Shown here: piece by piece, positions 2,849-30,740 of the stretch
Layout: every line of letters begins with the position of its first letter
How positions within the stretch are numbered: the first letter of the stretch is position 1
From: a virus
Taxonomy: Duplodnaviria; Caudoviricetes
IMG/VR virus record: IMGVR_UViG_2974556029_000001
Span: 1-64,000 of that record
Length of the DNA: 64,000 bases
Strand: one strand, 5' to 3'
Made by a program: the position numbers and the translations under genes
Notes under the pieces: model-generated
The model's database searches: none
What the model saw: the letters and a program-made list of their open reading frames with translations, nothing else
What the model was told of the DNA's origin: nothing

Positions 2849-3174
2849 CGCCGGTCCGCGCGATCAGGGTTTCCGATCTCGACGAGACGAGCCGCCCGGG
2901 CGAGTTCATGTGGCTCAGCCAGAGCGGCCATCCCGAGGCCGGCTGGGTCATGCTCAACTTCATGTGCCCGTGCGGCTGCGGGCGCGAGGGCGGCGTCACG
3001 ATCGACACGCCGTTCACCAGCAAGCAGGGCGAGACGCCGCGCTGGTGGTGGGACGGTAACGAGGAGCGGCCCACGCTGAAGCCCAGCATCGACTGGCGCT
3101 TGCCCGACGGCCAGGGCGGCACCGTGTCGCACTGGCACGGCTATCTGACCGAGGGCATCTTCGCCCCATGTTGA
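2845..3174 (+). CDS. DUF6527-like Zn-binding protein
   Basis: CPCGCG...WWWDG...PTLKPSI...HWHGYLTEG motif; GGAGGAGG RBS; overlaps the TerS stop. Confidence 0.6.
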   Translation: MTPVRAIRVSDLDETSRPGEFMWLSQSGHPEAGWVMLNFMCPCGCGREGGVTIDTPFTSKQGETPRWWWDGNEERPTLKPSIDWRLPDGQGGTVSHWHGYLTEGIFAPC

Positions 3175-3602
3175 AACAGGCCGCCAAGCCCTGCTCCGAT
3201 CGCGTCTTGAACCTGGTCGGAGCCGGGCTGAGGACGGCTGTGCTCCTGGACATGGCGCACCGGCTCCGCGCCGGTCACGACGTCATCCTGGCGAGCCAGA
3301 CCCTGCTGCAGGTCAAGACCATGATCGCCGACCTGGGCCGCCACCTGGGCCGCGGCGTGATCGAAGGCGAGGTGGCGCGCTGGGGCAACAGCGGCCACGC
3401 CCACTTCTTCGCGCTCGAGCCGGATCACCCTCGAGTCGCCGACCTGCTCTGCATCACGGCGGCCTGGTGCGACGAGCTCTACGGGTTCAGGGCGACCCGG
3501 AACCAGATCGGCGCGGCGAACCACCTGGTCAGAAACCTGCGCAAGGTGGTGCACGGCACCAATCCCAAGATCATGATCACGGGCGACCCAGCCTGGCCTT
3601 GA
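3168..3602 (+). CDS. Truncated TerL-ATPase paralog 1 (144 aa)
   Basis: RWGNSGHAHFFALE...AAWCDE...NLRKVVHGTNPKIMITGDP aligns with this window's TerL EWPNGAVAHVFSAE...AAWIDE...NLRFALRLGNNPQRIYTMTP. Confidence 0.75.
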   Translation: MLKQAAKPCSDRVLNLVGAGLRTAVLLDMAHRLRAGHDVILASQTLLQVKTMIADLGRHLGRGVIEGEVARWGNSGHAHFFALEPDHPRVADLLCITAAWCDELYGFRATRNQIGAANHLVRNLRKVVHGTNPKIMITGDPAWP

Positions 3603-4417: not shown

Positions 4418-4960
4418 ATGAAGCTTTTCAGCGAAGGAGTCCGGGTCGAGATCGGCAAGACCTCGAACCAGACCAAGATTACCGATCTGGCCACGGGCGA
4501 GTTGGTCGAGAACCTGATCGGCATGGCGATGGAGATCGACGGCAACAACCGGACCGATCGCCCTGTGTTGATCCTGGTCATCGGCGATGTCGACATGACG
4601 GTCGAGAACGATCGGGTCGACTACCAGGTCGACGCCGGCCTGCTCCAGCGCATCGCCGAGTTCAACGGCTTCGACCTCGTGCCCAAGCCTGAGCCGGTGG
4701 CCGACGTCGAGGACGACGAGCCCGAGCTTGTGGCCGCCTCCGTCTCGACCGAGGTGATAAAGCCCGACCTGGTTGAGGAGCTCGAAACCATCCCGTCGCT
4801 CCGGAACGACGCGGTGCAGGTCTCCGCCGCGACGGAACACCAGGCCGGCCAGCCGGTGGGGCGGGGCACCAACATCCTCAAGGGCGGCATCGGCGGCCTG
4901 AGCGAGGATCTCGGCACGGACGAGATCCCGCGCAGCCTCGACACGTCGGATCCGGTCTGA
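4418..4960 (+). CDS. Hypothetical protein, acidic C-terminal half
   Basis: 180 aa, GGAG RBS, phage codon usage. Confidence 0.7.
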   Translation: MKLFSEGVRVEIGKTSNQTKITDLATGELVENLIGMAMEIDGNNRTDRPVLILVIGDVDMTVENDRVDYQVDAGLLQRIAEFNGFDLVPKPEPVADVEDDEPELVAASVSTEVIKPDLVEELETIPSLRNDAVQVSAATEHQAGQPVGRGTNILKGGIGGLSEDLGTDEIPRSLDTSDPV

Positions 4961-5328
4961 TGACGAGCTTCAACGCCGTCCTCGAGGAGGTGTGGGCCAG
5001 CCTTCTGTCTGGCACCCTCACCCATGTCGTCGTGCTCCACGGCGGCGAGTCGAACGTTCTGATCGACGCGATCAAGGCCAAGATCAGCGCCGAGCAGGTC
5101 AACGTCACCCTGAACCTGAACGACAAGGTCGTGACCTTCGTCAACGGCGAGAAGCTGCGGATCATCGCCGGCGACGCCTCGGAGAAGCTGCGCGGTCTCA
5201 TGCTCGATGGCCTCTGGCTGCTGAACCTGGACGCGCTTCCGGTCGACGTCTGGCGCACGGCGCGGGACCGCGGCGTGATGGCTCTGCGTCTGGGCCGCAT
5301 GGCTCGCTTCGAGTCCTCGTTCGACTAG
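4960..5328 (+). CDS. Truncated TerL-ATPase paralog 2 (122 aa, Walker B lost)
   Basis: TFVNGEKLRIIAGDASEKLRGLMLDGLWLLN...MALRLG aligns with TerL EWPNGAVAHVFSAEDPESVRGHEFDAAWIDE...FALRLG. Confidence 0.7.
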   Translation: MTSFNAVLEEVWASLLSGTLTHVVVLHGGESNVLIDAIKAKISAEQVNVTLNLNDKVVTFVNGEKLRIIAGDASEKLRGLMLDGLWLLNLDALPVDVWRTARDRGVMALRLGRMARFESSFD

Positions 5329-5330
5329 AC

Positions 5331-5636
5331 ATGGACGATGCGACGCGGGCCCGGCTCCTTGAGCTGCAGCACGAACTGCTCTGGAGGAGCCCGGCCCGCG
5401 GCGCATCTGTCCTGATTTTCGAGCGCCCTGGCGTGGCCGAGATCAAGGCCTGGCTCTGGGCCCGCTACATCGGCGCGGACGAACTCACCTACCTGGCCCG
5501 CGCCGCTTTCGAGAAGCATGACGCGGTCGACATTGCGCTCTCGGGCGCCGGCGTGCTCCATGCCCATGTCAAAGGCGTCCTGGCCTGGCTGGTCGACCAG
5601 GGCGTCACCGTTCCGACCAGAGGAGAGACCACATGA
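5331..5636 (+). CDS. Hypothetical protein
   Basis: ATG 5331 follows the previous stop; phage codon usage. Confidence 0.65.
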   Translation: MDDATRARLLELQHELLWRSPARGASVLIFERPGVAEIKAWLWARYIGADELTYLARAAFEKHDAVDIALSGAGVLHAHVKGVLAWLVDQGVTVPTRGETT

Positions 5637-5830
5637 GCATCGTCACCCTGCAGACCGACAGCGGCGCGCACGTCCAGAACGTCCAGATCCCCGATCTCCG
5701 CCCGCCGGCCCGCGCCGTCGTCTGGGGCGAGCGCGTCTTCCTGCTGCACCAAGAGGCCGACTCGTCCGGGTCGCGGGCCGTGTATCGCGAAATCTTCGCC
5801 ATCGCGCCGATCGCGATCGGCAAGGACTAG
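5633..5830 (+). CDS. Small hypothetical protein
   Basis: AGGAGAG RBS, ATGA overlap with the upstream gene. Confidence 0.7.
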   Translation: MSIVTLQTDSGAHVQNVQIPDLRPPARAVVWGERVFLLHQEADSSGSRAVYREIFAIAPIAIGKD

Positions 5831-5853
5831 ATATCGGGCGCGAGAATGTGTTA

Positions 5854-6283
5854 ACGAGGCGGCCTGCAGCTGCCGAAAGTAAGCAAGCCCTTAGCGCTGG
5901 GGGCCCTGAGGATAGGCGGAGAACCTGGGCCAAGGGATGATGACTTCCCCCGGGACGTATCGATCGCTATTGGCCATCCACGCGCGGGAAGGACAGGCGG
6001 TCGGGACGGAGGTCGCTTGGGATTGGAGGCCCGCCAGGTTTACGCCCGGCGGGCCTTCGTGTATTTCGAGCCTGCTGCGGAGGTGGGGAGAAGACCCAGC
6101 CCCGACTGAAGGTAGGCGCCGACCGCGCCGTTGGAGCCAGGACGCCAGTCCTGGAAAGGCGGAGAACGCGAGACCCGGACCCCTGGAGTAACGCCCAGGG
6201 CTGCAGCGCGGAACGAGGTCGCACCGGGCGGCCGGGAGATCGACGAGGCTCAACCGAAACAGCTGCCGGGGACCGCCTCGTCG
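5854..6283 (+). ncRNA. Candidate ~430 nt structured non-coding RNA
   Basis: End-to-end pairing ACGAGGCGG(5854-62)/CCGCCTCGT(6273-81) plus GCAGCTG(5866-72)/CAGCTGC(6260-66); several internal hairpins; no credible ORF in an otherwise gene-dense operon. Strand assumed from the flanking operon. Confidence 0.55.
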
Positions 6284-6333
6284 TTTCGTCCGTTAAAAAT
6301 GGGATTTTTAATCCCGGAAAAGGAGACCCTGAC

Positions 6334-6612
6334 ATGTCCAAGATCAATCGGCGCGGCCTCTTCGGCCTGTTGTTCGGTGGCGCGGCCGCCGCCGCTCTCC
6401 CCAAGAGCGCCGTTGCGGCGGTAGCTCCGGCGCCGCTGAGCGCGAAATATGCTCTCAGCCTGGACACGGCCGGCCACATCACAGGTTTCAAGGCGGTCCA
6501 GCCGTTCCGCATGGAGCAAGGCTTTGTCGTCGTGGCCGAGAACTTCGGTTTCGTCGACCCATCGGCCCCCTTGAAGCAGCCGACGGCCAAGAACGTCCGG
6601 ATCGCCCGCTGA
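6334..6612 (+). CDS. Tat-signal protein carrying a copy of a tail-tip (DUF1983-like) segment
   Basis: INRRGLFGLL twin-arginine signal; ALSLDTAGHITGF...FVVVAENFGFVDP matches tail-tip VLSLNVDGHITGW...FVVVADEFGFVDP. Confidence 0.75.
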   Translation: MSKINRRGLFGLLFGGAAAAALPKSAVAAVAPAPLSAKYALSLDTAGHITGFKAVQPFRMEQGFVVVAENFGFVDPSAPLKQPTAKNVRIAR

Positions 6613-6887
6613 TGGTGGCCGCGATCCACTACGAGGCCGGCGAGACCGCGTTCTCTGTCCGCGGCACGGTGAAGCGCAAGGGCGATGGCCTGCCCAGCGT
6701 GATCATCGAGACCAAGACGGAAGGCGGCGACTGGGAGCATTGGTCCACGACCAAGTGCATCTTCCCCCAGGGCCAGGATGCCGGCTTCAGCAGCGTGATC
6801 CTCCCTCTGGGCGACGGCCAGGTCCGGGCCCGAGTCGAGCCGGTCGGATCGGGCAAGGTGGCGACCTTCGAACGGGCCCCAACCTAG
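6612..6887 (+). CDS. Small beta-rich hypothetical protein
   Basis: TGATG overlap with the upstream gene; 91 aa. Confidence 0.6.
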   Translation: MVAAIHYEAGETAFSVRGTVKRKGDGLPSVIIETKTEGGDWEHWSTTKCIFPQGQDAGFSSVILPLGDGQVRARVEPVGSGKVATFERAPT

Positions 6888-6960
6888 GCGAGACCGCTGT
6901 TTTTCGGTCCGGGGTGTGATAGATCGTCGCACGCGCATCCCGCGCCTGGAGCCTCCCCCC

Positions 6961-7206
6961 ATGGAAGACCAAATCATCCGCCAGGCCAAACTGGCCAAGC
7001 GCATCTTCACCACCCTGGAAGAGCGCTATCCCGACGACCAAGACCTGAAGAAGCTGCACGCCGTCGCCGCCGGTGGCCTGCAGATCCTGGGCATCGATCT
7101 CACCGCGATCGGCGAAGAAGCCAACCGCTCGGGCGGCGTCGACAAGAACGTCATCCTGGCCGACGAGAACGGCGAAGAGCCGGCGTCGGAAGGCGAAGAA
7201 GCCTGA
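6961..7206 (+). CDS. Small protein with RSGGVDK motif and acidic tail
   Basis: GGAG RBS before ATG 6961; coupled to the downstream membrane gene. Confidence 0.65.
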   Translation: MEDQIIRQAKLAKRIFTTLEERYPDDQDLKKLHAVAAGGLQILGIDLTAIGEEANRSGGVDKNVILADENGEEPASEGEEA

Positions 7207-8051
7207 TGGGTCCGCTGGCGCTGTTCTACGGCGCCATGACCGCCGCGGTCGCCATCCACGGGTGGCGATCGCGGTACTGGGACGTCTACATGGTGGGCGT
7301 GGTCCAGGTGGTCGGGTGGCTCATGTCGAACGCCTCCAATCTCCGCCTCCATGGCGTCGATATGATGGAGGGCTTTGCCTATACGGACTGCTTCATCCTG
7401 TCGGCCCTGCTGATCCTCTACGGAGCGCGGCCCACGTTCTGGAAGCTCCTGATCATGGGCCTGATCCTCCTGCAGAACGGGATGCACGTCGTTCAAGGCA
7501 CGTGGGGAGGCGAAGAGAGCCTGTCTCTCTACCGCTGGTTCTTGAACGGATCCTATGTCCTTCAGCTCGCGGTTCACCTGGTCGTGGTGCGCTATCCATC
7601 GTTCGACGTGGAGACCCGCCACGGGCCGGTAATGCGTCAAAAGCGCGCGGGCCTTCCGAAAGGCTCAGTTTCGCGGCATGGTCGGCCCAGACCCCACAGG
7701 AGCTGCACTCCGATGAAACGCATCTACCTGGCCGCCATGGTCGCCAGCATAGGCCTATCGGGCCTGATCATGTCCCCCGCCATGGCCTATCCCCCGCCCG
7801 GGCGCGAGCCCCCCGATTTCGTGCCGTTCGAAGTGGTCCAGGGCGGGCTCAGGATCCGCGCCCACCTCCGGGAGCTGCAGAACGGCGAGACGATCTCGCT
7901 CCCAGGCGCCTTCGTGCCGGCCGACACCTCGGAGGACCTGGCGATCTACTGGGACCGGCGATCCAAGGCCTATGTGGCGCGCCAGGGGACGGAATATCTG
8001 GTCAATCCCGTCCGATACGTCATGATCGGCAGAGCCAGAGCCCCCGACTGA
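7206..8051 (+). CDS. Multi-pass membrane protein with an in-frame downstream secreted ORF (internal ATG 7713)
   Basis: Four to five hydrophobic segments; AGGAG RBS before MKRIYLAAMVASIGLSGLIMSPAMA at 7713. Confidence 0.6.
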   Translation: MGPLALFYGAMTAAVAIHGWRSRYWDVYMVGVVQVVGWLMSNASNLRLHGVDMMEGFAYTDCFILSALLILYGARPTFWKLLIMGLILLQNGMHVVQGTWGGEESLSLYRWFLNGSYVLQLAVHLVVVRYPSFDVETRHGPVMRQKRAGLPKGSVSRHGRPRPHRSCTPMKRIYLAAMVASIGLSGLIMSPAMAYPPPGREPPDFVPFEVVQGGLRIRAHLRELQNGETISLPGAFVPADTSEDLAIYWDRRSKAYVARQGTEYLVNPVRYVMIGRARAPD

Positions 8052-8068: not shown

Positions 8069-8082
8069 TTCTTGCATTGTCG

Positions 8083-8123
8083 GCGCCGCCGCCCTGGCCT
8101 GGGTCGGCGGCGCTTCTCGTTTC
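8083..8123 (+). terminator. Terminator/attenuator-like hairpin before the terL RBS
   Basis: GCGCCGCCG/CGGCGGCGC stem followed by TTCTCGTTTC. Confidence 0.45.
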
Positions 8124-8133
8124 AGGATGCCCC

Positions 8134-9564
8134 ATGGACCGAATGGAATCGCCCTTCTATCGCGCCGGGTTGACGCGAGAGTGGTGGACCTCGTTGCCTG
8201 AGGAGGAGCGCGCCAGGGTGCTGGCGTCGTGGACCCCTGTCGAAATCGAAGCCTTCGCCAAGGACTGGCGCGTCTGGGCCCGCGATCAGCAGCTTCCGCC
8301 GCCGGGCCAGTGGCGCTCCTGGATCCTGAAGTGCGGCCGCGGCTTCGGGAAGAACCGCAGCGCCGGCGAGCAGGTCAAGGACTGGGTCGAGAGCGGCCAG
8401 AAGGGGCGTATCTGCCTCCTGGGCCAGGGCGAGGCCGACGTGCGCGACATCATGGTCGAGGGCAAGTCGGGCCTGCTGGCCATCTCGAACAGCTGGTTCC
8501 GCCCTAAGTGGTCTCCGAGCCGCGGCGGCGGCCTGCTCGAATGGCCCAACGGCGCGGTGGCGCACGTCTTCTCGGCCGAGGATCCGGAGTCTGTCCGGGG
8601 GCACGAGTTCGACGCGGCCTGGATCGACGAGCCCATGTCCTACAAGGCCAAGAACCGGCAGGACATCATCTCCAACCTCCGCTTCGCCCTGCGCCTGGGC
8701 AACAACCCGCAGCGGATCTACACGATGACGCCGAAGCCGCACAAATGGCTTCGTGAGCTCCTGGCCACGGTCAATCCAGCCAAGGGCATCTACCTGACCG
8801 AGGGCTCCACCTACGACAACGTGGACAACCTGCCGCCGGCGTTCCTCGAGGACGTGACCGACGACTACGCCGGCACCAGGCTGGGCGAGCAGGAGCTGAG
8901 CGGCATCCTGCTGAACGACACCGAAGACGCCCTCTGGACCAGCATGCTTCTGGACCGGTGCCGGATCATGAAGGAGGCCTCGGAAGAGGAGATCATGAAT
9001 TTCGCCAAGTCGATGGAGCGCATCGTCGTGGCGGTCGACCCGAACATCTCGGCCACCGGCACGAGCCACGCCGCCGGCGTCACCGTCATTGGCCGCAAGG
9101 CGGGCAAGCGCTATCTCCTGGCCGACAAGACCAAGCGAGGCGGCCCAGACGTCTGGGGCAAGAACGCCGTGAACGCCTATGCGGACTGGAACGCCGACGA
9201 GATCGTGGCCGAGGTGAACCAGGGTGGCGACCTGGTCAAATCCGTGATCCAGCAGGTCGGTGTCTCGCTCGGGATTGACGTGCCGGTCCACAAGGTCCAT
9301 GCGACTCGAGGCAAGCAGAAACGCGCCGAGCCGGTGGCCGCGGCTTACGAGCAAGGTCGCTGCCTGCACGTCGGGCCGGCCTCGCGCTACACCAAGGTGG
9401 AGAGCCAGATGTGCGACCTGCACGAGGGTAACGACCAGACCGGCGAAGACTTCGACCGAAGCGACTCGGTGGTGTGGGGCATGACCCGTCTCGCCAAGGG
9501 CGAAGGGGGCGTGACCAGCGCCGGAGGTTCGGGCATCTTCACCTTCGACCAGATCGGAGCATAG
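8134..9564 (+). CDS. terL: Terminase large subunit
   Basis: Walker A-like CGRGFGKN, Walker B AAWIDE, coupling motif YTMTP, RNase H-like nuclease IVVAVDP...DRSDSVVW. Confidence 0.95.
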   Translation: MDRMESPFYRAGLTREWWTSLPEEERARVLASWTPVEIEAFAKDWRVWARDQQLPPPGQWRSWILKCGRGFGKNRSAGEQVKDWVESGQKGRICLLGQGEADVRDIMVEGKSGLLAISNSWFRPKWSPSRGGGLLEWPNGAVAHVFSAEDPESVRGHEFDAAWIDEPMSYKAKNRQDIISNLRFALRLGNNPQRIYTMTPKPHKWLRELLATVNPAKGIYLTEGSTYDNVDNLPPAFLEDVTDDYAGTRLGEQELSGILLNDTEDALWTSMLLDRCRIMKEASEEEIMNFAKSMERIVVAVDPNISATGTSHAAGVTVIGRKAGKRYLLADKTKRGGPDVWGKNAVNAYADWNADEIVAEVNQGGDLVKSVIQQVGVSLGIDVPVHKVHATRGKQKRAEPVAAAYEQGRCLHVGPASRYTKVESQMCDLHEGNDQTGEDFDRSDSVVWGMTRLAKGEGGVTSAGGSGIFTFDQIGA

Positions 9565-9566
9565 AC

Positions 9567-10955
9567 GTGGCAGGCCTGACCGACAAAACCCGCGAGTACG
9601 GTGAGCAGGTCACCGTCTACACCGACGCGATGGACAGCGCGGGCTATATCCCGGAGCTGCGCGGCCCGCTCGGGCTGAAGCGCCTGGCCAAGATGGCGGA
9701 GACCGACGATACCGTCGGCGCCATGATGTGGGCCGTGGAGACCACGATGGCCCAGGTGGTCTGGAGCCACGAGGCGGCCAAGGACGGCAAGCCGTCGAAC
9801 GATCCCAAGGCGGCCCAAGCGGCCGACTTCGCCAACACCCTCCTGGGCGACATGGAGCACAGCTTCCAGGAGCACGTGGACGAGGCCATGAGCATGCTCT
9901 GGGCCGGCTTCTCGATCTGCGAGATCCTGCCCAAGCAGCGTGACGGCCAGAACTCCAAGTTCCCGGATGGGAAATGGGGCATCGACGCCCTAGTGGCGCG
10001 CCCTCAAACCTCGGTCAGCGGATGGGGCGTTGAGAACGGCCGGGTCACCACCGTCAAGACGATGACGACCATGGGGGAGAAGGAAATCCCCCTGTTCAAG
10101 TGCCTGCACTACAAGATCAAGGGCAACAGCCGCACCAGGCCGCAGGGTCGGTCCCTGTTCACTAACGCCTATCGTAGCTGGTACCTCAAGAACGACATCC
10201 AGGACGCCGAAGCGATCGGGATCCGGCGCGAGCTCTGCGGTCTCCCTGTCGCCAGCGTGCCTATGGCCGACATCAACGCGGCGACGAAGAAGGGCTCTGA
10301 CGGCAAACTGTCGCCCGAGGGCGAGGCCGCCCTGGCCCGGATCACCGCCTTTAAGACCGCCGTGTCCAAGATGCGGCTCAACGAGACGTCTGGCCTGGTC
10401 AAGCCGTCGGATCCGTTCCTCGACGAGGACGGCAAGCCGAGCATGATCCCGCAGTACGACTTCAAGATCCTGAGCGGCGGCGGCCAGCGCTCCATGGATC
10501 CGCGCGCGCCGATCCGCGACTACGACCGCGCCATCGCCCGCGTCGCCATGATGCAATTCCTGCACCTGGGCGATCGCTCGACCGGCTCCTACGCCCTGTC
10601 CGACAACCAGAGCACCCTGGCCCTGCGCTCGATGCGAGCCCTGGTGGGCAAGATCATCGACGAGTGGAACCGCAAGGTCCTGCCGCTGCTGTGGGAGCTG
10701 AACGGCATGGACAAGGCCTACATGCCCGTCCTGACCTCCTCGCCCATCACCGAGGACAGCCTGGAAGAACTGGGCACCTTCCTTGAGCGCCTGAGCTCGG
10801 CCCAGCTGCTTCTGGACGAAGAGCCCGAGCTGAAGGAGAGCATGCTGAGCCGGATCGGCATCAGGCGCGATCGCGTGACGAAGCCGGCCGGCGCCCGCGC
10901 CCGCCTACGTCCGGCCCAGCCTCCGACGCCGGAGCCGGCGCGTGCCGCTGCGTGA
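9567..10955 (+). CDS. Portal protein (DUF935-like)
   Basis: Directly after TerL; PQGRSLFTNAYRSWYLK...EAIGIRRELCGLPVA motif; GTG start with GGAG RBS. Confidence 0.88.
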   Translation: MAGLTDKTREYGEQVTVYTDAMDSAGYIPELRGPLGLKRLAKMAETDDTVGAMMWAVETTMAQVVWSHEAAKDGKPSNDPKAAQAADFANTLLGDMEHSFQEHVDEAMSMLWAGFSICEILPKQRDGQNSKFPDGKWGIDALVARPQTSVSGWGVENGRVTTVKTMTTMGEKEIPLFKCLHYKIKGNSRTRPQGRSLFTNAYRSWYLKNDIQDAEAIGIRRELCGLPVASVPMADINAATKKGSDGKLSPEGEAALARITAFKTAVSKMRLNETSGLVKPSDPFLDEDGKPSMIPQYDFKILSGGGQRSMDPRAPIRDYDRAIARVAMMQFLHLGDRSTGSYALSDNQSTLALRSMRALVGKIIDEWNRKVLPLLWELNGMDKAYMPVLTSSPITEDSLEELGTFLERLSSAQLLLDEEPELKESMLSRIGIRRDRVTKPAGARARLRPAQPPTPEPARAAA

Positions 10956-26016: not shown

Positions 26017-27644
26017 CGTGGGTTCTTGAGATGACCGGGACCAGGATCTCGGACGGCGTCGCAGAGCGATTCCTGTTCGCTCTCGGCGCCGGCCTGGCCC
26101 TGAAGGACGACGACTACGTCGAGCCCGGCCTTATTGGCTGGGCCAGCCCGTCGCAGAACATCGACGTGGCCAAGACGGGGGGCGTCAGCACCAAGACCGA
26201 CGCCGGCGAGTTCACGATCTCCAACGCGCCGCCGGCGATCGACCAGCCCGGCCCGTGGGATCGCCTCCTGGACGTCGTCTGGAACGGCAAGACCGCCACG
26301 CTTTTCTGGGTTCCTGGCCAACTCTGGTCCCAGCGCGTCAAGATGGCCTGGGGCACCATGGAGCAGCCGATCGGCAGCATCCTGGGCTCTGGCTCCCAGC
26401 CGAACATCAAGTTTCCGCTGCGAGATCCGCGCGCCGCCCTGGAGGCCCCGCTCCAGCCGAAGAAGTTCCTGGGCGACAACGCCGGCCCCGTCGGCGTGGA
26501 AGGTGGGTCGGACCTTAAGGGGACGCCCAAGCCGATCCTCTACGGGACCGCGTCAAATTGCCCGGTGCCAAAGGTCAACGACGCCCTGCTGATCTACCAG
26601 GTGGCCGACAAGCCCGTGAGCGTGCTCTGCGTCCGGGACGGCGCGTCCGCCCTCACCGCCGGCGTAGTGCGTGCGAACCTGGCAAGCATGCAGGCCACGC
26701 CTCCGGGCGGCGGGAAATACGACGTCTACGCCGGCGCGGAAGGCACGTTCGTCCGGGTTGGTACGACCCCGACCTATGGGCTGGCCGTCGATGCGGCCGA
26801 GGGGGCGAACGCCGCGGCGCGCACGCACGCCAAGATCTGGAGCCGCATCCGGACCGAGCGCTGCGGCACGGCAGGCGGCGACATCAACACCTCGAGCATC
26901 ACGGCCGCCGATCTTCTCGACGCCGGCGAAGTTGGCTTCTGGTGGTCTGGCGAGACGACCCAGAGAGAGGCCGTGGACCAGGTCCTCGCCTCATTCAATG
27001 GGTTCGAGATCAACGAGGTCTCGGGTCAGTGGAAGGTCCAGAAGCTGGTGCTTCCCTCGGGCACGCCAGTGATCGAATTGGCCGTGCTCAGGCCCAACTC
27101 GGTCAAGACCGCCAAGGCGAGGTCCATGACCGCTCTTCAGCGCCTCCGCCCGGGCTACGCGCCCAACGGCGTGCCACCCTACCGTGTCACGGTCTACTGG
27201 GGCCGGAACTACAAGGTCATGAACGACGGCGAGTTCGCCGGGTACGCCAACACGCGGCTCAAGGAGAAATTCTCGACCGAGTGGAGACTCGAGCCCGCCA
27301 CGAACGCCACGGTCTGGAACCCGGACACCGGCGCCGGTCTGTGGCCAAACGCCCCGGAGCTGACGGTCGAGTCCAGCTATATCCCTGGTCCTGACGGCCT
27401 GACGTGCCCGGCCGCGACCGCTGAGGCCGCCCGACTTCTGGCCATGTACTCGACCCTCCGCGGGCAATATCAGGTCTCCTTCAACCCGCGTGTCGAGGAT
27501 AGGGTGCAGCCGGGCGACGTCGTGAAGCTCACGCACGCCAGCATGGGCCTATCGGGCGGCAAGCTCTTCGTCGTCCTGCAGGCGGGTCTTCTGGTAGGGT
27601 CGAAGGGGTCGGAGATGGATCTGGTCGTGGGGCTCGAGGCATGA
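26013..27644 (+). CDS. Tail/baseplate hub-like protein
   Basis: Directly after the tape measure; GGSDLKGTPKPILYG...P.VN...LIYQV. Confidence 0.7.
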   Translation: MTWVLEMTGTRISDGVAERFLFALGAGLALKDDDYVEPGLIGWASPSQNIDVAKTGGVSTKTDAGEFTISNAPPAIDQPGPWDRLLDVVWNGKTATLFWVPGQLWSQRVKMAWGTMEQPIGSILGSGSQPNIKFPLRDPRAALEAPLQPKKFLGDNAGPVGVEGGSDLKGTPKPILYGTASNCPVPKVNDALLIYQVADKPVSVLCVRDGASALTAGVVRANLASMQATPPGGGKYDVYAGAEGTFVRVGTTPTYGLAVDAAEGANAAARTHAKIWSRIRTERCGTAGGDINTSSITAADLLDAGEVGFWWSGETTQREAVDQVLASFNGFEINEVSGQWKVQKLVLPSGTPVIELAVLRPNSVKTAKARSMTALQRLRPGYAPNGVPPYRVTVYWGRNYKVMNDGEFAGYANTRLKEKFSTEWRLEPATNATVWNPDTGAGLWPNAPELTVESSYIPGPDGLTCPAATAEAARLLAMYSTLRGQYQVSFNPRVEDRVQPGDVVKLTHASMGLSGGKLFVVLQAGLLVGSKGSEMDLVVGLEA

Positions 27645-28435
27645 TCGGTGGCGTCGGCTTTCCCTCATACAGGTCGTTGTTCACGACCTCGTCCAACGGC
27701 GTGGCTACCCATGTCGATTTTCCGGCCGCCAACATGGCTGATCTGGCCGAGCCGAACCGTCCGGCAGTCGCTGCTGCTCCGGGGTCCTTCACGGCCCGCA
27801 TCGACCTCTCCGCCCCGCGCGCGATCGCGTTCCTCGCCCTGGTCAACCACAACGTCCTGGACGGCACGATCCGGGTTCGCGCATGGGCGGGAACGAACAT
27901 CGCCGGTGCGCCGGACTACGACTCAACCGCCATCCCGTTCTGGCCGGCCGGCAGCGGTCCGATCGCGCCATACATCTGGACCAGGCCGATCCTGCTCTCC
28001 GAGCCGGTGACTGCGCAGACCGTGCTGATCGATATCGAACCTGTCACGTCCACCACGGTGTCGATCGGCGCGGTCGAGGCGTCGGCCTGGTGGGAGTGGC
28101 CAGACATCATGGTCGAGGAGGAGCGCGGCTTTGCCCCGACCTCCATCATGTCGCAGCTCCCAGGCGGCATTGACGAAGTGACGCGCCAGTGGGCGCCGAG
28201 GATCCAGTCCGGCACCAGGACCGCCCTGACGGCCGACGAGCTCCAAACGACCGCCCTGGACTTCCAGAGGATCATGGGCCGGTCCAAGCCTTTCGTGTTC
28301 GTCCGCGACCTCGAGGACGCCTCCCGCTGGGCGCGCGAGGTATTTTTGGCTACGAACGCTGATCTGCCCCTGGTCACGATCGACGACACGGAAACCGGGG
28401 CCTTCCCCTATCGCCTGCGCGAGCACATCGGATGA
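27641..28435 (+). CDS. Distal tail-like protein, paralog A
   Basis: Aligns along its length with 28432-29223. Confidence 0.65.
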   Translation: MIGGVGFPSYRSLFTTSSNGVATHVDFPAANMADLAEPNRPAVAAAPGSFTARIDLSAPRAIAFLALVNHNVLDGTIRVRAWAGTNIAGAPDYDSTAIPFWPAGSGPIAPYIWTRPILLSEPVTAQTVLIDIEPVTSTTVSIGAVEASAWWEWPDIMVEEERGFAPTSIMSQLPGGIDEVTRQWAPRIQSGTRTALTADELQTTALDFQRIMGRSKPFVFVRDLEDASRWAREVFLATNADLPLVTIDDTETGAFPYRLREHIG

Positions 28436-29223
28436 AGACGGGCCTCGCCTTTCCCTCCTACATGCCGGACGCCTCCAGCGTTACGAGCAACGGCGTCTCG
28501 ACGGCCGCCAGCTACCCGGCAGCGAACATGGCCAGCCTGAAGTCGCCAACCAAGGTTGCGCGCGCGGCGGCGGCCGGCTCCTTCCAGGCCAGGGTAAACC
28601 TGATCGGCCCCAGGCCAGTGCAGTTCATGGCGGCCGTGAACCACAACCTGATCGACGGCACCATTCGCTTTCAGGGATGGGCCGGCGCGAGTGTTGCCGG
28701 CGCTCCTGACTACGACAGCGGGATCTTGCCCGTCTGGCCTTCCGCTGGTCCGGTCGAAACCTATCCGGCGATCCGCCCCTTGGTCCTGGACGCCCCCGTC
28801 TCCCTTCAAACCGTGATAATCACCCTCACGCCGTCTTCGGCTACGGTGGTTGAGGTCGGCGCGGTGGAAGTCGCGGCCTGGTGGGAATGGATCGGGATCT
28901 CGAGCCGTGACGCTGGGGTGAACCCGCGCCAGGAGGACATCAATCTGGTCGGCGGCGCGGTCTCGACGGCCGATGCGTGGTCACCTCGAGTCCTCAATGG
29001 TCGCCTGGACTTCATGAAGGTGGGCCCAAGGACCGAACAGGTCCATGACTTCCAGATCGCCAGCGATCTTAACGTGCCCTTCGTGTTCTGCCTGGACGCT
29101 GACGATCCTGCCTCCTGGACCAGGACCTCTTACGTGGCCCGCAACCAGGAGCTTCCGCCGCTGGTCGGGGCGCTGTATCGCCACGACGCCTTCAATTTCC
29201 GCTTCGTCGAGCACTGGAGATAG
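28432..29223 (+). CDS. Distal tail-like protein, paralog B
   Basis: Shares FPSY...SNGV...PAANMA...VNHN..DGTIR...AGAPDYDS...VEAxAWWEW with the upstream gene. Confidence 0.65.
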   Translation: MKTGLAFPSYMPDASSVTSNGVSTAASYPAANMASLKSPTKVARAAAAGSFQARVNLIGPRPVQFMAAVNHNLIDGTIRFQGWAGASVAGAPDYDSGILPVWPSAGPVETYPAIRPLVLDAPVSLQTVIITLTPSSATVVEVGAVEVAAWWEWIGISSRDAGVNPRQEDINLVGGAVSTADAWSPRVLNGRLDFMKVGPRTEQVHDFQIASDLNVPFVFCLDADDPASWTRTSYVARNQELPPLVGALYRHDAFNFRFVEHWR

Positions 29224-29225
29224 GC

Positions 29226-30740
29226 GTGCTTGCTGACTGCCTTGCCCCAGAAATCTTCGAACCGTCGGAAGCGAGCCTGACGGTTCCGAACGTCACGGTC
29301 ACGGGGAAGACCCTGACCAAGGATGGCGTGAAGGTGCCGGCGCTGCAGGCGGCATGGTCTCCCGTCACCAACCCGTATGTGACCGACGTCGAGTTCCAGT
29401 TCACGCCGTCCGACGGTAGCTCCGGCGCCCTCTCTTCGAAGTCGCGGGCCGACGCCCTGTCGTGGAGCGACCTGCGGGTCGTGGCCGGCCAGGAATACAG
29501 CATCAGGTGGCGCGCGGTCGGCGCGAACAAGGTCGGCCTCTGGTCGGCGCCTGTCCTGCGCACGCCGCCGGCGACCCTTGTCTCGACCGACACGATTACG
29601 GTCGGCGGCCGCGACGCCAAGCAGATCCTCAAGGACATGGACATCAATGCCGCGGCGATCATCCGCGAGGCGATGACCCAGGTCGACACGAGGGCCTATC
29701 TCGACGCCCTGGCCTATATCGACGGCGCGCCGGTCGGCTCGGTCGTGGTGCACGAGATCACGCGGACCGACGACCTGGTCGAGACGATCGACATCATCGG
29801 CGTCAAGACGCCGGACCGCACCGCCTTCATCCTCAACACGGACCTGGTCTACACCAGCGGCACCAAGACGCTGGCGCAGACCTTCACCGATATCCGCGTC
29901 GAGGCGCAGACCAACCTCGCGGCCGCCGTCACGACCATCAACCAGGCGATTATCGACGGCGACTATCTGCTGGCCCAGCAGATCAACACTGTGGCTGTGC
30001 AGGCGAACAACAACCTTTCAGCCGCGGTCAGCACGCTGAACCAGGCTATCATCAACGGCGACAACGCCGTGGCCAGCCAGGTGACGAGCGTCCAGACGAC
30101 GGTGAACGGCCACACGTCTCAGATCTCGTCCTTGTTCTCGTCGATCAACGGGATCCGGGCCGAGGCCGTGCTCTCGCTGAACGTGGACGGCCACATCACT
30201 GGCTGGTCCCTGATCAACGACGGGAATTCCGGTTCGTTCGTCGTGGTGGCGGACGAGTTCGGCTTCGTTGACCCGGGCGGCGGGTCGCCTACCTTCCCGA
30301 TCAGCTATTCCGGCGGCCTGCTCCGGATGCTGAACGTCGCGATCGATACCTTGGTGGTGGGCTCGGTCACGACGTCGGCTATCGGCTACAACGCCGTCAC
30401 CGTGCCATCGATCGCCTCGGCCAGTTGGACGATGAGCGGAAGCGGGTTCTTCCAGAGCATCCTGTCCACGACGGTGTCTCTGACCCAGGCCGGCTGGGTG
30501 CGCGCCACCGCGGCTATCGCCCAGCACTTCCCGTCCGGGGACAGGAACTGGGAGTTCCGCCTCTACATCAACTATTCCATGGCGTTTGATTGCTACGGCG
30601 CGAACGGCCAGGACAGCATCGCGCTGAGCGGCGCAGTCTATTGCGGCGCCGGAGCTATTCCGGTCGAGATCCAATGGAGCGCCCACAGCTCGGTCACGAT
30701 CGACTATCGAACCTGCGAAGCCCTTGGAGTGATGCGATGA
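29226..30740 (+). CDS. Tail tip / central fibre (gpJ C-terminal-like, FN3 plus DUF1983-like)
   Basis: FN3-like EYSIRWRAVGANKVGLWS, coiled-coil repeats, LSLNVDGHITGW...FVVVADEFGFVDP. Confidence 0.8.
   Translation: MLADCLAPEIFEPSEASLTVPNVTVTGKTLTKDGVKVPALQAAWSPVTNPYVTDVEFQFTPSDGSSGALSSKSRADALSWSDLRVVAGQEYSIRWRAVGANKVGLWSAPVLRTPPATLVSTDTITVGGRDAKQILKDMDINAAAIIREAMTQVDTRAYLDALAYIDGAPVGSVVVHEITRTDDLVETIDIIGVKTPDRTAFILNTDLVYTSGTKTLAQTFTDIRVEAQTNLAAAVTTINQAIIDGDYLLAQQINTVAVQANNNLSAAVSTLNQAIINGDNAVASQVTSVQTTVNGHTSQISSLFSSINGIRAEAVLSLNVDGHITGWSLINDGNSGSFVVVADEFGFVDPGGGSPTFPISYSGGLLRMLNVAIDTLVVGSVTTSAIGYNAVTVPSIASASWTMSGSGFFQSILSTTVSLTQAGWVRATAAIAQHFPSGDRNWEFRLYINYSMAFDCYGANGQDSIALSGAVYCGAGAIPVEIQWSAHSSVTIDYRTCEALGVMR

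Follow-up and report, generated by a model that had tools for sequence, protein, structure and literature searches.

The locus described here belongs to an IMG/VR virus record with a total length of 80,297 bp, of which the window, the whole stretch of DNA that was analysed, comprises the first 64 kb. The record possesses direct terminal repeats (2,127 bp as measured) and a G+C content of 65.8%. As its head genes encode a Mu-type portal, a MuF-like protein, a scaffold and the major head protein, and its tail genes the tail tube, a frameshift chaperone pair, a 1,801-aa tape measure, several tail-tip proteins and, in last position, a 504-aa fibre, the phage is by its gene complement a siphophage. 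The endolysin and the spanins are encoded at 36.0-37.5 kb, and the spanin pair points to a Gram-negative host. Searches with TerL, a 543-aa tail protein and the product of gene D identified no close relatives of the phage, no tRNA genes were found and Rfam reported nothing credible at positions 5500-7000. Between terS and terL, far from the tail genes, is located a small gene, gene A, which with genes B, C and D forms a four-gene run that ends just before terL. The features on which the following discussion is based are:

6321..6326, plus strand: Shine-Dalgarno sequence AAGGAG, read from the sequence, 8 nt before the ATG of gene A
6334..6612, plus strand: gene A, coding for a 92-aa precursor that combines a predicted export signal with a shortened copy of the first part of the central straight fibre
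6334..6417, plus strand: predicted signal peptide of gene A, residues 1-28, with the n-region MSKINRR, a 16-residue uncharged Gly/Ala-rich h-region, P-K and AVA
6436..6609, plus strand: predicted mature part of gene A, residues 35-92, colinear with residues 310-~375 of the fibre and ~863-936 of lambda J
6612..6887, plus strand: gene B, 91 aa, no signal peptide; its start overlaps the stop of gene A by one base (TGATG)
6916..7206, plus strand: gene C, 96 aa, acidic (20 acidic versus 13 basic residues), in the same operon
7206..8051, plus strand: gene D, 281 aa, a polytopic membrane protein as predicted from the hydrophobic segments of its translation; its start overlaps the end of gene C
8077-9564: T4-type large terminase (TerL)
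29226..30740, plus strand: central tail fibre, 504 aa, with an N-terminal domain, a coiled-coil shaft (~220-310), the start of a prism (310-~375) and a C-terminal domain taken as receptor-binding
30153..30281, plus strand: fibre segment matched by gene A in BLASTP and a six-frame search
34.9-37.5 kb: lysis cassette of three small membrane proteins, an endolysin-like protein and an i-/o-spanin pair, as read from the translations

Gene A uses the first start codon that its open frame offers, behind a strong Shine-Dalgarno sequence, shows a GC3 of 0.83-0.84 compared with 0.88 in the fibre gene and has the codon usage and G+C content of the genome, features by which it is judged to be a real gene. 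The approximately 500 bp upstream (5831-6333) contain no credible ORF in an otherwise dense genome and end in an AT-rich patch, and a perfect palindrome of 15 nt, GGGATTTTTAATCCC, unique in the window, is located at 6301-6315, 18 nt before the start of gene A. No sigma-70-like promoter was detected in this gap by a simple scan, and structure in the 5' leader is at the level expected by chance (z -0.03); the gap could be the private promoter or operator of the A to D operon.

The N-terminus of the gene A product reads MSKINRRGLFGLLFGGAAAAALPKSAVAAVAPAP, with K3, R6 and R7 followed by 16 uncharged residues, P-K and an AVA-A site, the cleavage after AVA having been placed by eye. Thresholds of the TatFind type for twin-arginine signals call for a weakly hydrophobic, Gly/Ala-rich h-region that runs for ~13 residues or more free of charge, and for a c-region containing a basic residue. 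Gene A and the two relatives introduced below (P0002 and the member on L003) all have h- and c-regions of this composition. In each of these three proteins 16 uncharged residues with a mean Kyte-Doolittle value of 1.3-1.8 follow the RR and end in P-K; for gene A itself the mean is 1.66, compared with 2.93 for the signal of the o-spanin of the same phage. The Tat consensus Z-R-R-x-hydrophobic-hydrophobic is represented by N-R-R-G-L-F in gene A and by N-R-R-G-L-L in P0002 and the L003 member, and in alignment A4 the start MSK[IL]NRRGL and the PK end are invariant across the three members while the h-region varies. The models TIGR01409 and PF10518 gave no match to gene A or P0002, and genome-wide scans with both models were empty; on the L003 member only, TIGR01409 scored 14.3 bits, below its cut-off of 16.7. 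Both models are short, and the HMMER filters are harsh on Ala-rich stretches. Of the Tat export claimed in an earlier note on this DNA the fit of the N-terminus to the twin-arginine pattern has held, although the curated Tat HMMs stay below threshold; on the reading of these residues, export of the gene A product is probable, with Tat as the likely route.

The second half of the precursor leads to the tail. By BLASTP, residues 35-76 of gene A align with residues 310-350 of the central tail fibre with 20 identical and 26 similar positions out of 42 (E 3e-8), and when all six frames of the 80,297-bp record are searched, the second copy falls at 30153-30281 (E 2.9e-7), close to the ~30160-30280 of the earlier note. 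In an all-against-all BLASTP comparison of 110 codon-usage-filtered ORFs (E<=1e-3), gene A and the fibre constitute the sole cross-module pair, the others being duplicates in the terminal repeats and one tandem pair of tail paralogues. The pairwise E value, the six-frame search and the uniqueness in the all-against-all comparison together show that the match is real and not due to chance. The fusion of a twin-arginine-type signal to a tail-fibre-matching segment, as described in the earlier note, is thereby confirmed. The tandem pair (27641-28435 and 28432-29223; 264 and 263 aa) is 42% identical over 263 residues (E 2e-61) and is situated directly upstream of the fibre gene; its second member matches phrog_8610.

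Assignment of the fibre to the gpJ type is based on several matches. Fibre residues 220-361 match PDB 9ze4_N, 'Tip attachment protein J central straight fiber domain', with E 8e-7, residues 331-383 align with lambda J 888-940 with E 0.001, and the protein matches the tail fibre family phrog_496, while the score with PF09327 (Phage_Tail_Tip), 17.2-20.7 bits, stays below the cut-off of 22. PF09327 gives no match to gene A. In lambda gpJ, the order of elements is a hub, two FNIII domains, an alpha-helical shaft, a beta-sheet prism (the central straight fibre, CSF) and the receptor-binding domain (PMC11101478; see also PMC13455828), and upon receptor binding residues 841-861 of the shaft refold into strands atop the prism and the FNIII strings come alongside the prism (PMC11101478). 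Alignment A5 sets gene A and P0002 beside the phage's own fibre, lambda J (from residue 863) and three further J-type proteins, two of them giant J-like proteins of metagenomic origin. Over its full length the mature small protein runs colinear with the prism's initial 60-70 residues, to a C-terminus where NVRIAR corresponds to LNVAID of the fibre, and it lacks ~10-15 internal residues that the fibre has. As aligned, the copied piece is the shaft-prism junction, the start of the central-straight-fibre beta-prism, and not the receptor-binding domain, which at fibre residues ~380-504 is absent from gene A. The description of the copy as a tail-tip segment consequently needs to be narrowed: homology to the tail fibre exists, but it is the start of the prism that was taken and not the tip proper. 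In contrast to the PF09327/gpJ fibre family, gene A stands alone with 92 aa and a signal and is flanked by neither a shaft nor a receptor-binding domain; gene A is, from this alignment, a derivative of the gpJ central straight fibre family and not a fibre.

The age of the copy can be estimated from the relatives of gene A. At the DNA level, gene A and the fibre motif segment share 72 of 126 positions (57%), which rules out a recent self-duplication of the fibre as the source of gene A. Furthermore, P0002 is closer to the fibre of this phage (22/40, E 1e-11) than is gene A itself (20/42). As P0002 is nearer to the fibre and the DNA of gene A and the fibre has diverged to this extent, the copy is old, is not a recent self-duplication and has moved between phages. 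The attribution of the segment to the phage's own tail, made in the earlier note, is thus correct as to the type of fibre but not as to a recent origin from it.

In an AF2 monomer model of gene A, built on a four-row alignment, confidence is confined to a hairpin at residues 38-55, and the Atlas model is likewise poor (pLDDT 0.33). A poor monomer model is what is expected of strands that interlock with two other chains, which suggests self-association or a partner. That the copy spans exactly the switch of three chains from coiled coil to interlocked strands has led us to consider that the protein, with its N-terminus as an uncleaved anchor or unused, acts as a cytoplasmic or membrane-tethered helper of fibre assembly, which pairs with nascent fibres at the shaft-prism junction and either seeds their trimerisation or poisons the fibres of co-infecting competitors. 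Cleavage sites that are by reading not obvious in P0002 or the third member and the sub-threshold Tat HMMs agree with such a role, but the invariant N-R-R-G-L, the 16-residue uncharged stretch and the PK boundary fit an export signal and not a soluble chaperone, a stable membrane span would require a longer and more hydrophobic h-region, and the gene, which is distant from the tail genes, moves between phages independently of them. Assistance in fibre assembly is therefore considered quite unlikely.

The family to which gene A belongs is small. P0002 (90 aa, E 1.6e-12) is the one true homologue among 1.84 billion representative proteins and shares with gene A 41 of 83 residues by BLASTP, an identity of ~51%, together with the same signal, the motif and the C-terminal RIAR. 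It is encoded on a 14.5-kb Logan contig (L004), a single contig on record, among small genes after a primase-helicase; the contig encodes in addition DNA polymerase A, thymidylate synthase and dCMP deaminase, stops short of any tail gene, and has the gene A homologue as its sole gene in common with the phage discussed here. Two genes past P0002, at 10648-10905 of this contig, an 85-aa protein is encoded whose start, MRTLHLLALATC, resembles that of a signal-bearing protein or lipoprotein and whose tail of Asp, Glu and Gly is extremely acidic; by its start it is another exported small protein of the P0002 gene run. A third, diverged member is located at 6001-6249 of IMG/VR UViG 3300046530_000117 (L003) and keeps the MSKINRRGL signal and the LD-x-x-G-H hairpin. 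This 82-aa protein carries between signal and hairpin the insert LVCWGDSLTE, resembling block I of GDSL/SGNH hydrolases. In this third phage (G001), the phage's own J-type motif is only faintly like its own small protein, and no evidence of co-variation was seen between the two.

Searches of five collections brought up no further small version. A word-index search of 5.8 billion proteins with gene A as the query retrieved only gene A at near lengths and nothing at longer lengths, and the same search with fibre residues 280-420 yielded one distant fibre only, P0005, which carries PF09327 and to which the small proteins are similar at E 1e-4 and 4e-6. Scans of IMG/VR with gene A and with the alignment of gene A and P0002 recovered only the diverged L003/L005 member. 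No small version was found in a scan of GTDB genomes, nor by tblastn in GenBank phages, where tail fibre or J matches only were obtained; in JGI metagenomes a first scan gave none and a second, with P0002 as query, only giant J-like fibres. P0002 itself matches GenBank phage proteins annotated as tail tip, J or DUF1983 as well as giant metagenomic J-like proteins. A match in the Chlorobiaceae phage CV-1-33, considered as a small exported gene, sits in a tail-region fragment and was dismissed. In two of the giant J-like metagenomic tail proteins, L011 526-8553 (2,675 aa) and L012 2279-8410 (>2,044 aa), repeat arrays (GVTAAWSSDI…NSISGTGGI…LETADPEMVVF…WYD.NDN.KPY.WDG..W) precede the prism start DLDVNGHVSG.

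The preservation of the architecture in an unrelated phage argues, at the level of sequence comparison, for a function of gene A. This has to be weighed against the gene being expressed debris without a selected function, a fibre fragment that illegitimate recombination placed after a stray signal, in an island where gene fragments accumulate. The terS-terL island indeed contains an ORF at 3168-3602 (144 aa), residues 67-141 of which match the Walker-B region of TerL (residues 151-219) with 24 of 77 identities and E 6e-6, and a second one at 4960-5328 that is weakly like TerL (E 0.03). Owing to the matches of the ORF at 3168 and of gene A, the island holds at least two miniature paralogues, one a piece of the TerL ATPase and the other a piece of the fibre. 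The presence of this fragment-like TerL ATPase paralogue (3168-3599) and the extreme rarity of the family are in line with debris. However, the architecture has been kept in an unrelated phage at 51% identity with conservation of the RR motif and the core strand residues, all copies are intact, the homologues are preceded by Shine-Dalgarno-like sequences (GAAAGGA on L004 and AGGAGG on L003), and each copy has the G+C content of its own genome and thus an ameliorated composition. The dN/dS ratio between gene A and P0002 is ~0.24, with dS saturated and the statistics thin with only two or three members. Debris is on this account highly improbable. Taken together, the anatomy of gene A as a real, exported and fibre-derived gene is regarded as probable.

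The neighbouring genes provide a second line of information. No PADLOC, PHROG, Pfam or NCBIfam family matched any of the genes A to D, and no relative of gene D was found. Gene B does not resemble the fibre's N-terminal domain and is predicted to form a seven-strand beta-sandwich (AF2 pLDDT 65). Its Atlas model (pTM 0.79) has as nearest structural neighbour the gpJ FNIII-A cluster with a TM of 0.74, which makes a gpJ FNIII-like domain a lead only, as PF24801 matches nowhere in the genome and comparison of the AF2 model with PDB (Foldseek, VIA-align) returned generic beta-sandwiches only, with a best Z of 6.2 and no FNIII/gpJ match. P0002 is likewise followed by an overlapping gene (ATGA), coding for a 93-aa protein, but its similarity to gene B is not significant (z 1.35; 208 of 2000 shuffles reach the score), and downstream of the third member lies an unrelated, longer gene.

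These findings bear on a different use of the signal, in which gene A would escort a signal-less partner, gene B or another phage protein that pairs with fibre-type strands, through the Tat system, the strands being the docking surface and the passenger the effector. Gene B is signal-less and translationally coupled to gene A, an arrangement repeated by P0002 and its overlapping neighbour, and it is gene B which is predicted to fold as a beta-sandwich, whereas no fold is predicted for gene A by itself. The FNIII domains of lambda gpJ, moreover, rest against the prism in the open state (PMC11101478), which fits the Atlas neighbour of gene B, and hitchhiking is an established mode of Tat transport (PMC4273604, PMC10924467). 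The lack of significant similarity between gene B and the downstream gene on L004, the missing FNIII support from PF24801 and PDB, and the unrelated, longer gene behind the third member speak against such an escort, which is rated as rather unlikely. A role of gene B as partner is unsupported, given the z of 1.35 for its positional counterpart on L004.

Gene D encodes a predicted five-span membrane part, which is followed in frame by an apparently complete Sec-type signal MKRIYLAAMVASIGLSGLIMSPAMA, an internal signal-like segment at ~170-194, and a C-terminal domain of ~87 aa. Read from its translation, gene D would either be one polytopic protein with a C-terminal domain on the outside or contain a nested second start that gives rise to a separate secreted protein. 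As a multi-pass membrane protein, gene D could be holin-like, and gene A, a small and presumably unstable periplasmic protein, might act in lysis timing or as a sensor of superinfection, reporting the arrival of phage or the state of the envelope to the lysis machinery in the manner of the T4 antiholin RI. In size and layout gene A resembles RI, which is small and periplasmic and whose signal peptide can be cleaved off (PMC8385771), and the gene A-like gene of the third phage lies ~1 kb from a spanin/holin-like cluster. The lysis cassette of the present phage, though, lies 28 kb from gene A at 34.9-37.5 kb, neither RI nor any holin family is related to gene A in sequence, and nothing links fibre-type strands to a holin, so that coupling of gene A to lysis timing is viewed as very unlikely. 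Membership of gene A in the lysis cassette proper was discarded, as the holin-like genes, the endolysin and the spanins are all found in the distant cassette. In UViG 3300046530_000117, ORFs for an o-spanin-like lipoprotein, an i-spanin-like protein and holin-like multi-span proteins are found ~1 kb downstream of the small gene on the opposite strand.

The conserved export signal, the fibre-core residues conserved across unrelated phages and the membrane protein in the operon point to a selected, envelope-directed accessory function of gene A. Known small periplasmic phage proteins mostly serve superinfection exclusion (PMC7677548, PMC9586334) or lysis control (PMC8385771). In the favoured scenario, the twin-arginine-type signal would send a mature protein of ~60 residues across the inner membrane, and this protein would be a shortened copy of the first CSF beta-prism strands after the coiled-coil shaft. 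Gene A would assemble already in the cytoplasm, its strand-pairing surface joining it to further copies of itself or to another protein, for instance gene B, an assumption derived from the fact that the fibre strands make sense only within a three-chain prism; assembly in the cytoplasm would in turn explain the use of Tat, the route for folded proteins, rather than Sec. Once in the periplasm, gene A and the membrane protein D of the same operon would together interfere at the envelope stage with infection by phages with the same fibre or tip type, by an action like that of T4 Spackle. Cleavage, Tat use, oligomerisation, the partner and the function in exclusion are those elements of the scenario that we infer. 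The complete statement, that gene A is a working accessory gene for a Tat-exported and pre-assembled miniature of ~60 prism residues which blocks entry in superinfection exclusion, is put forward as a tentative proposal, more likely than not to be wrong in at least one of its parts. Against it counts that in lambda the prism remains outside the outer membrane during infection, so that the counterpart of a periplasmic copy is not obvious.

The same topology bears on the mechanisms that the earlier note had suggested. Occupation of the envelope partner of the tail tip has lost ground and is now unlikely since the receptor-binding domain is not copied. While lambda infects, its central straight fibre remains extracellular, bound to the outer-membrane receptor (PMC11101478), and a Tat substrate goes to the periplasm, which makes the jamming of incoming tips topologically awkward if infection proceeds as in lambda. 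A decoy for a cytoplasmic defence sensor does not fit a protein with an export signal.

If entry is blocked by imitation of the fibre, this would represent a new principle of phage-against-phage exclusion, by self-mimicry and not by receptor masking or enzyme inhibition. No Tat substrate encoded by a phage and having a defined role is described in a recent Tat review or in the literature searched, so that gene A would then be the first one found, and it would point to a periplasmic step involving the shaft-prism junction of siphophage central fibres. If gene A is instead a Tat escort, phages would use hitchhiking to place signal-less proteins in the periplasm. In a wider generalization, phages would repeatedly make exported miniatures of their tail tips, with the prism strands pre-assembled alone or with gene B and passed through Tat, which would add an undescribed class of envelope-stage exclusion or decoy factors that act by structural self-mimicry of the infection apparatus; we offer this extension as a doubtful one.

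Compared with known systems, the mature gene A product is a colinear homologue of the initial ~60 residues of the gpJ-type CSF beta-prism (PF09327 Phage_Tail_Tip, formerly DUF1983; PDB 9ze4 chain N; lambda J ~863-936), of which it keeps the core L-x-L-D-x-x-G-H-x-T-G ... F-V-V-V-A-x-x-F-G-F-x-x-P ... R-I-A-R. While gpJ CSF proteins comprise 500-2,700 aa, gene A codes for 92 aa, is devoid of hub, shaft and receptor-binding domain, possesses a signal and is located outside the tail module. With T4 Spackle gene A has in common that it is a small phage protein with an N-terminal signal, destined, in the case of gene A by prediction, for the periplasm of Gram-negative hosts. The two proteins are unrelated in sequence. 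Spackle, a helical protein that uses the Sec route, is not known to copy any virion protein. Exclusion by gene A is only proposed, by a mechanism of the kind that Spackle employs, a small periplasmic exclusion protein that binds the tail-tip lysozyme gp5 of incoming phages (PMC7677548). T5 Llp and phi80 Cor are likewise phage-encoded envelope proteins, which act on the periplasmic side to prevent infection by phages of the same type (bioRxiv 10.1101/2022.06.28.497910; PMC9586334), Llp by blocking FhuA from there (PMC9586334); but Llp and Cor are lipoproteins that bind FhuA, and gene A has neither a lipobox cysteine nor the receptor-binding part of the fibre.

On the side of the export route, the Tat hitchhikers of E. 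coli, HybO/HybC, DmsA/DmsB and PaoABC (PMC4273604, PMC10924467), present the same order as genes A and B, a signal-bearing protein followed by the gene for a signal-less partner, although the known hitchhikers are cofactor-containing redox enzymes, and genes A and B code for proteins of ~90 aa with no cofactor motifs and a putative pairing. WceF of Pantoea stewartii (PMC7949094) is a 736-aa bacterial glycan-modifying enzyme with a beta-helix, whereas gene A is phage-encoded and covers a ~60-residue fragment of a different fibre element; nevertheless, WceF sends a phage-fibre-type trimeric fold through the Tat system, as is proposed here for gene A.
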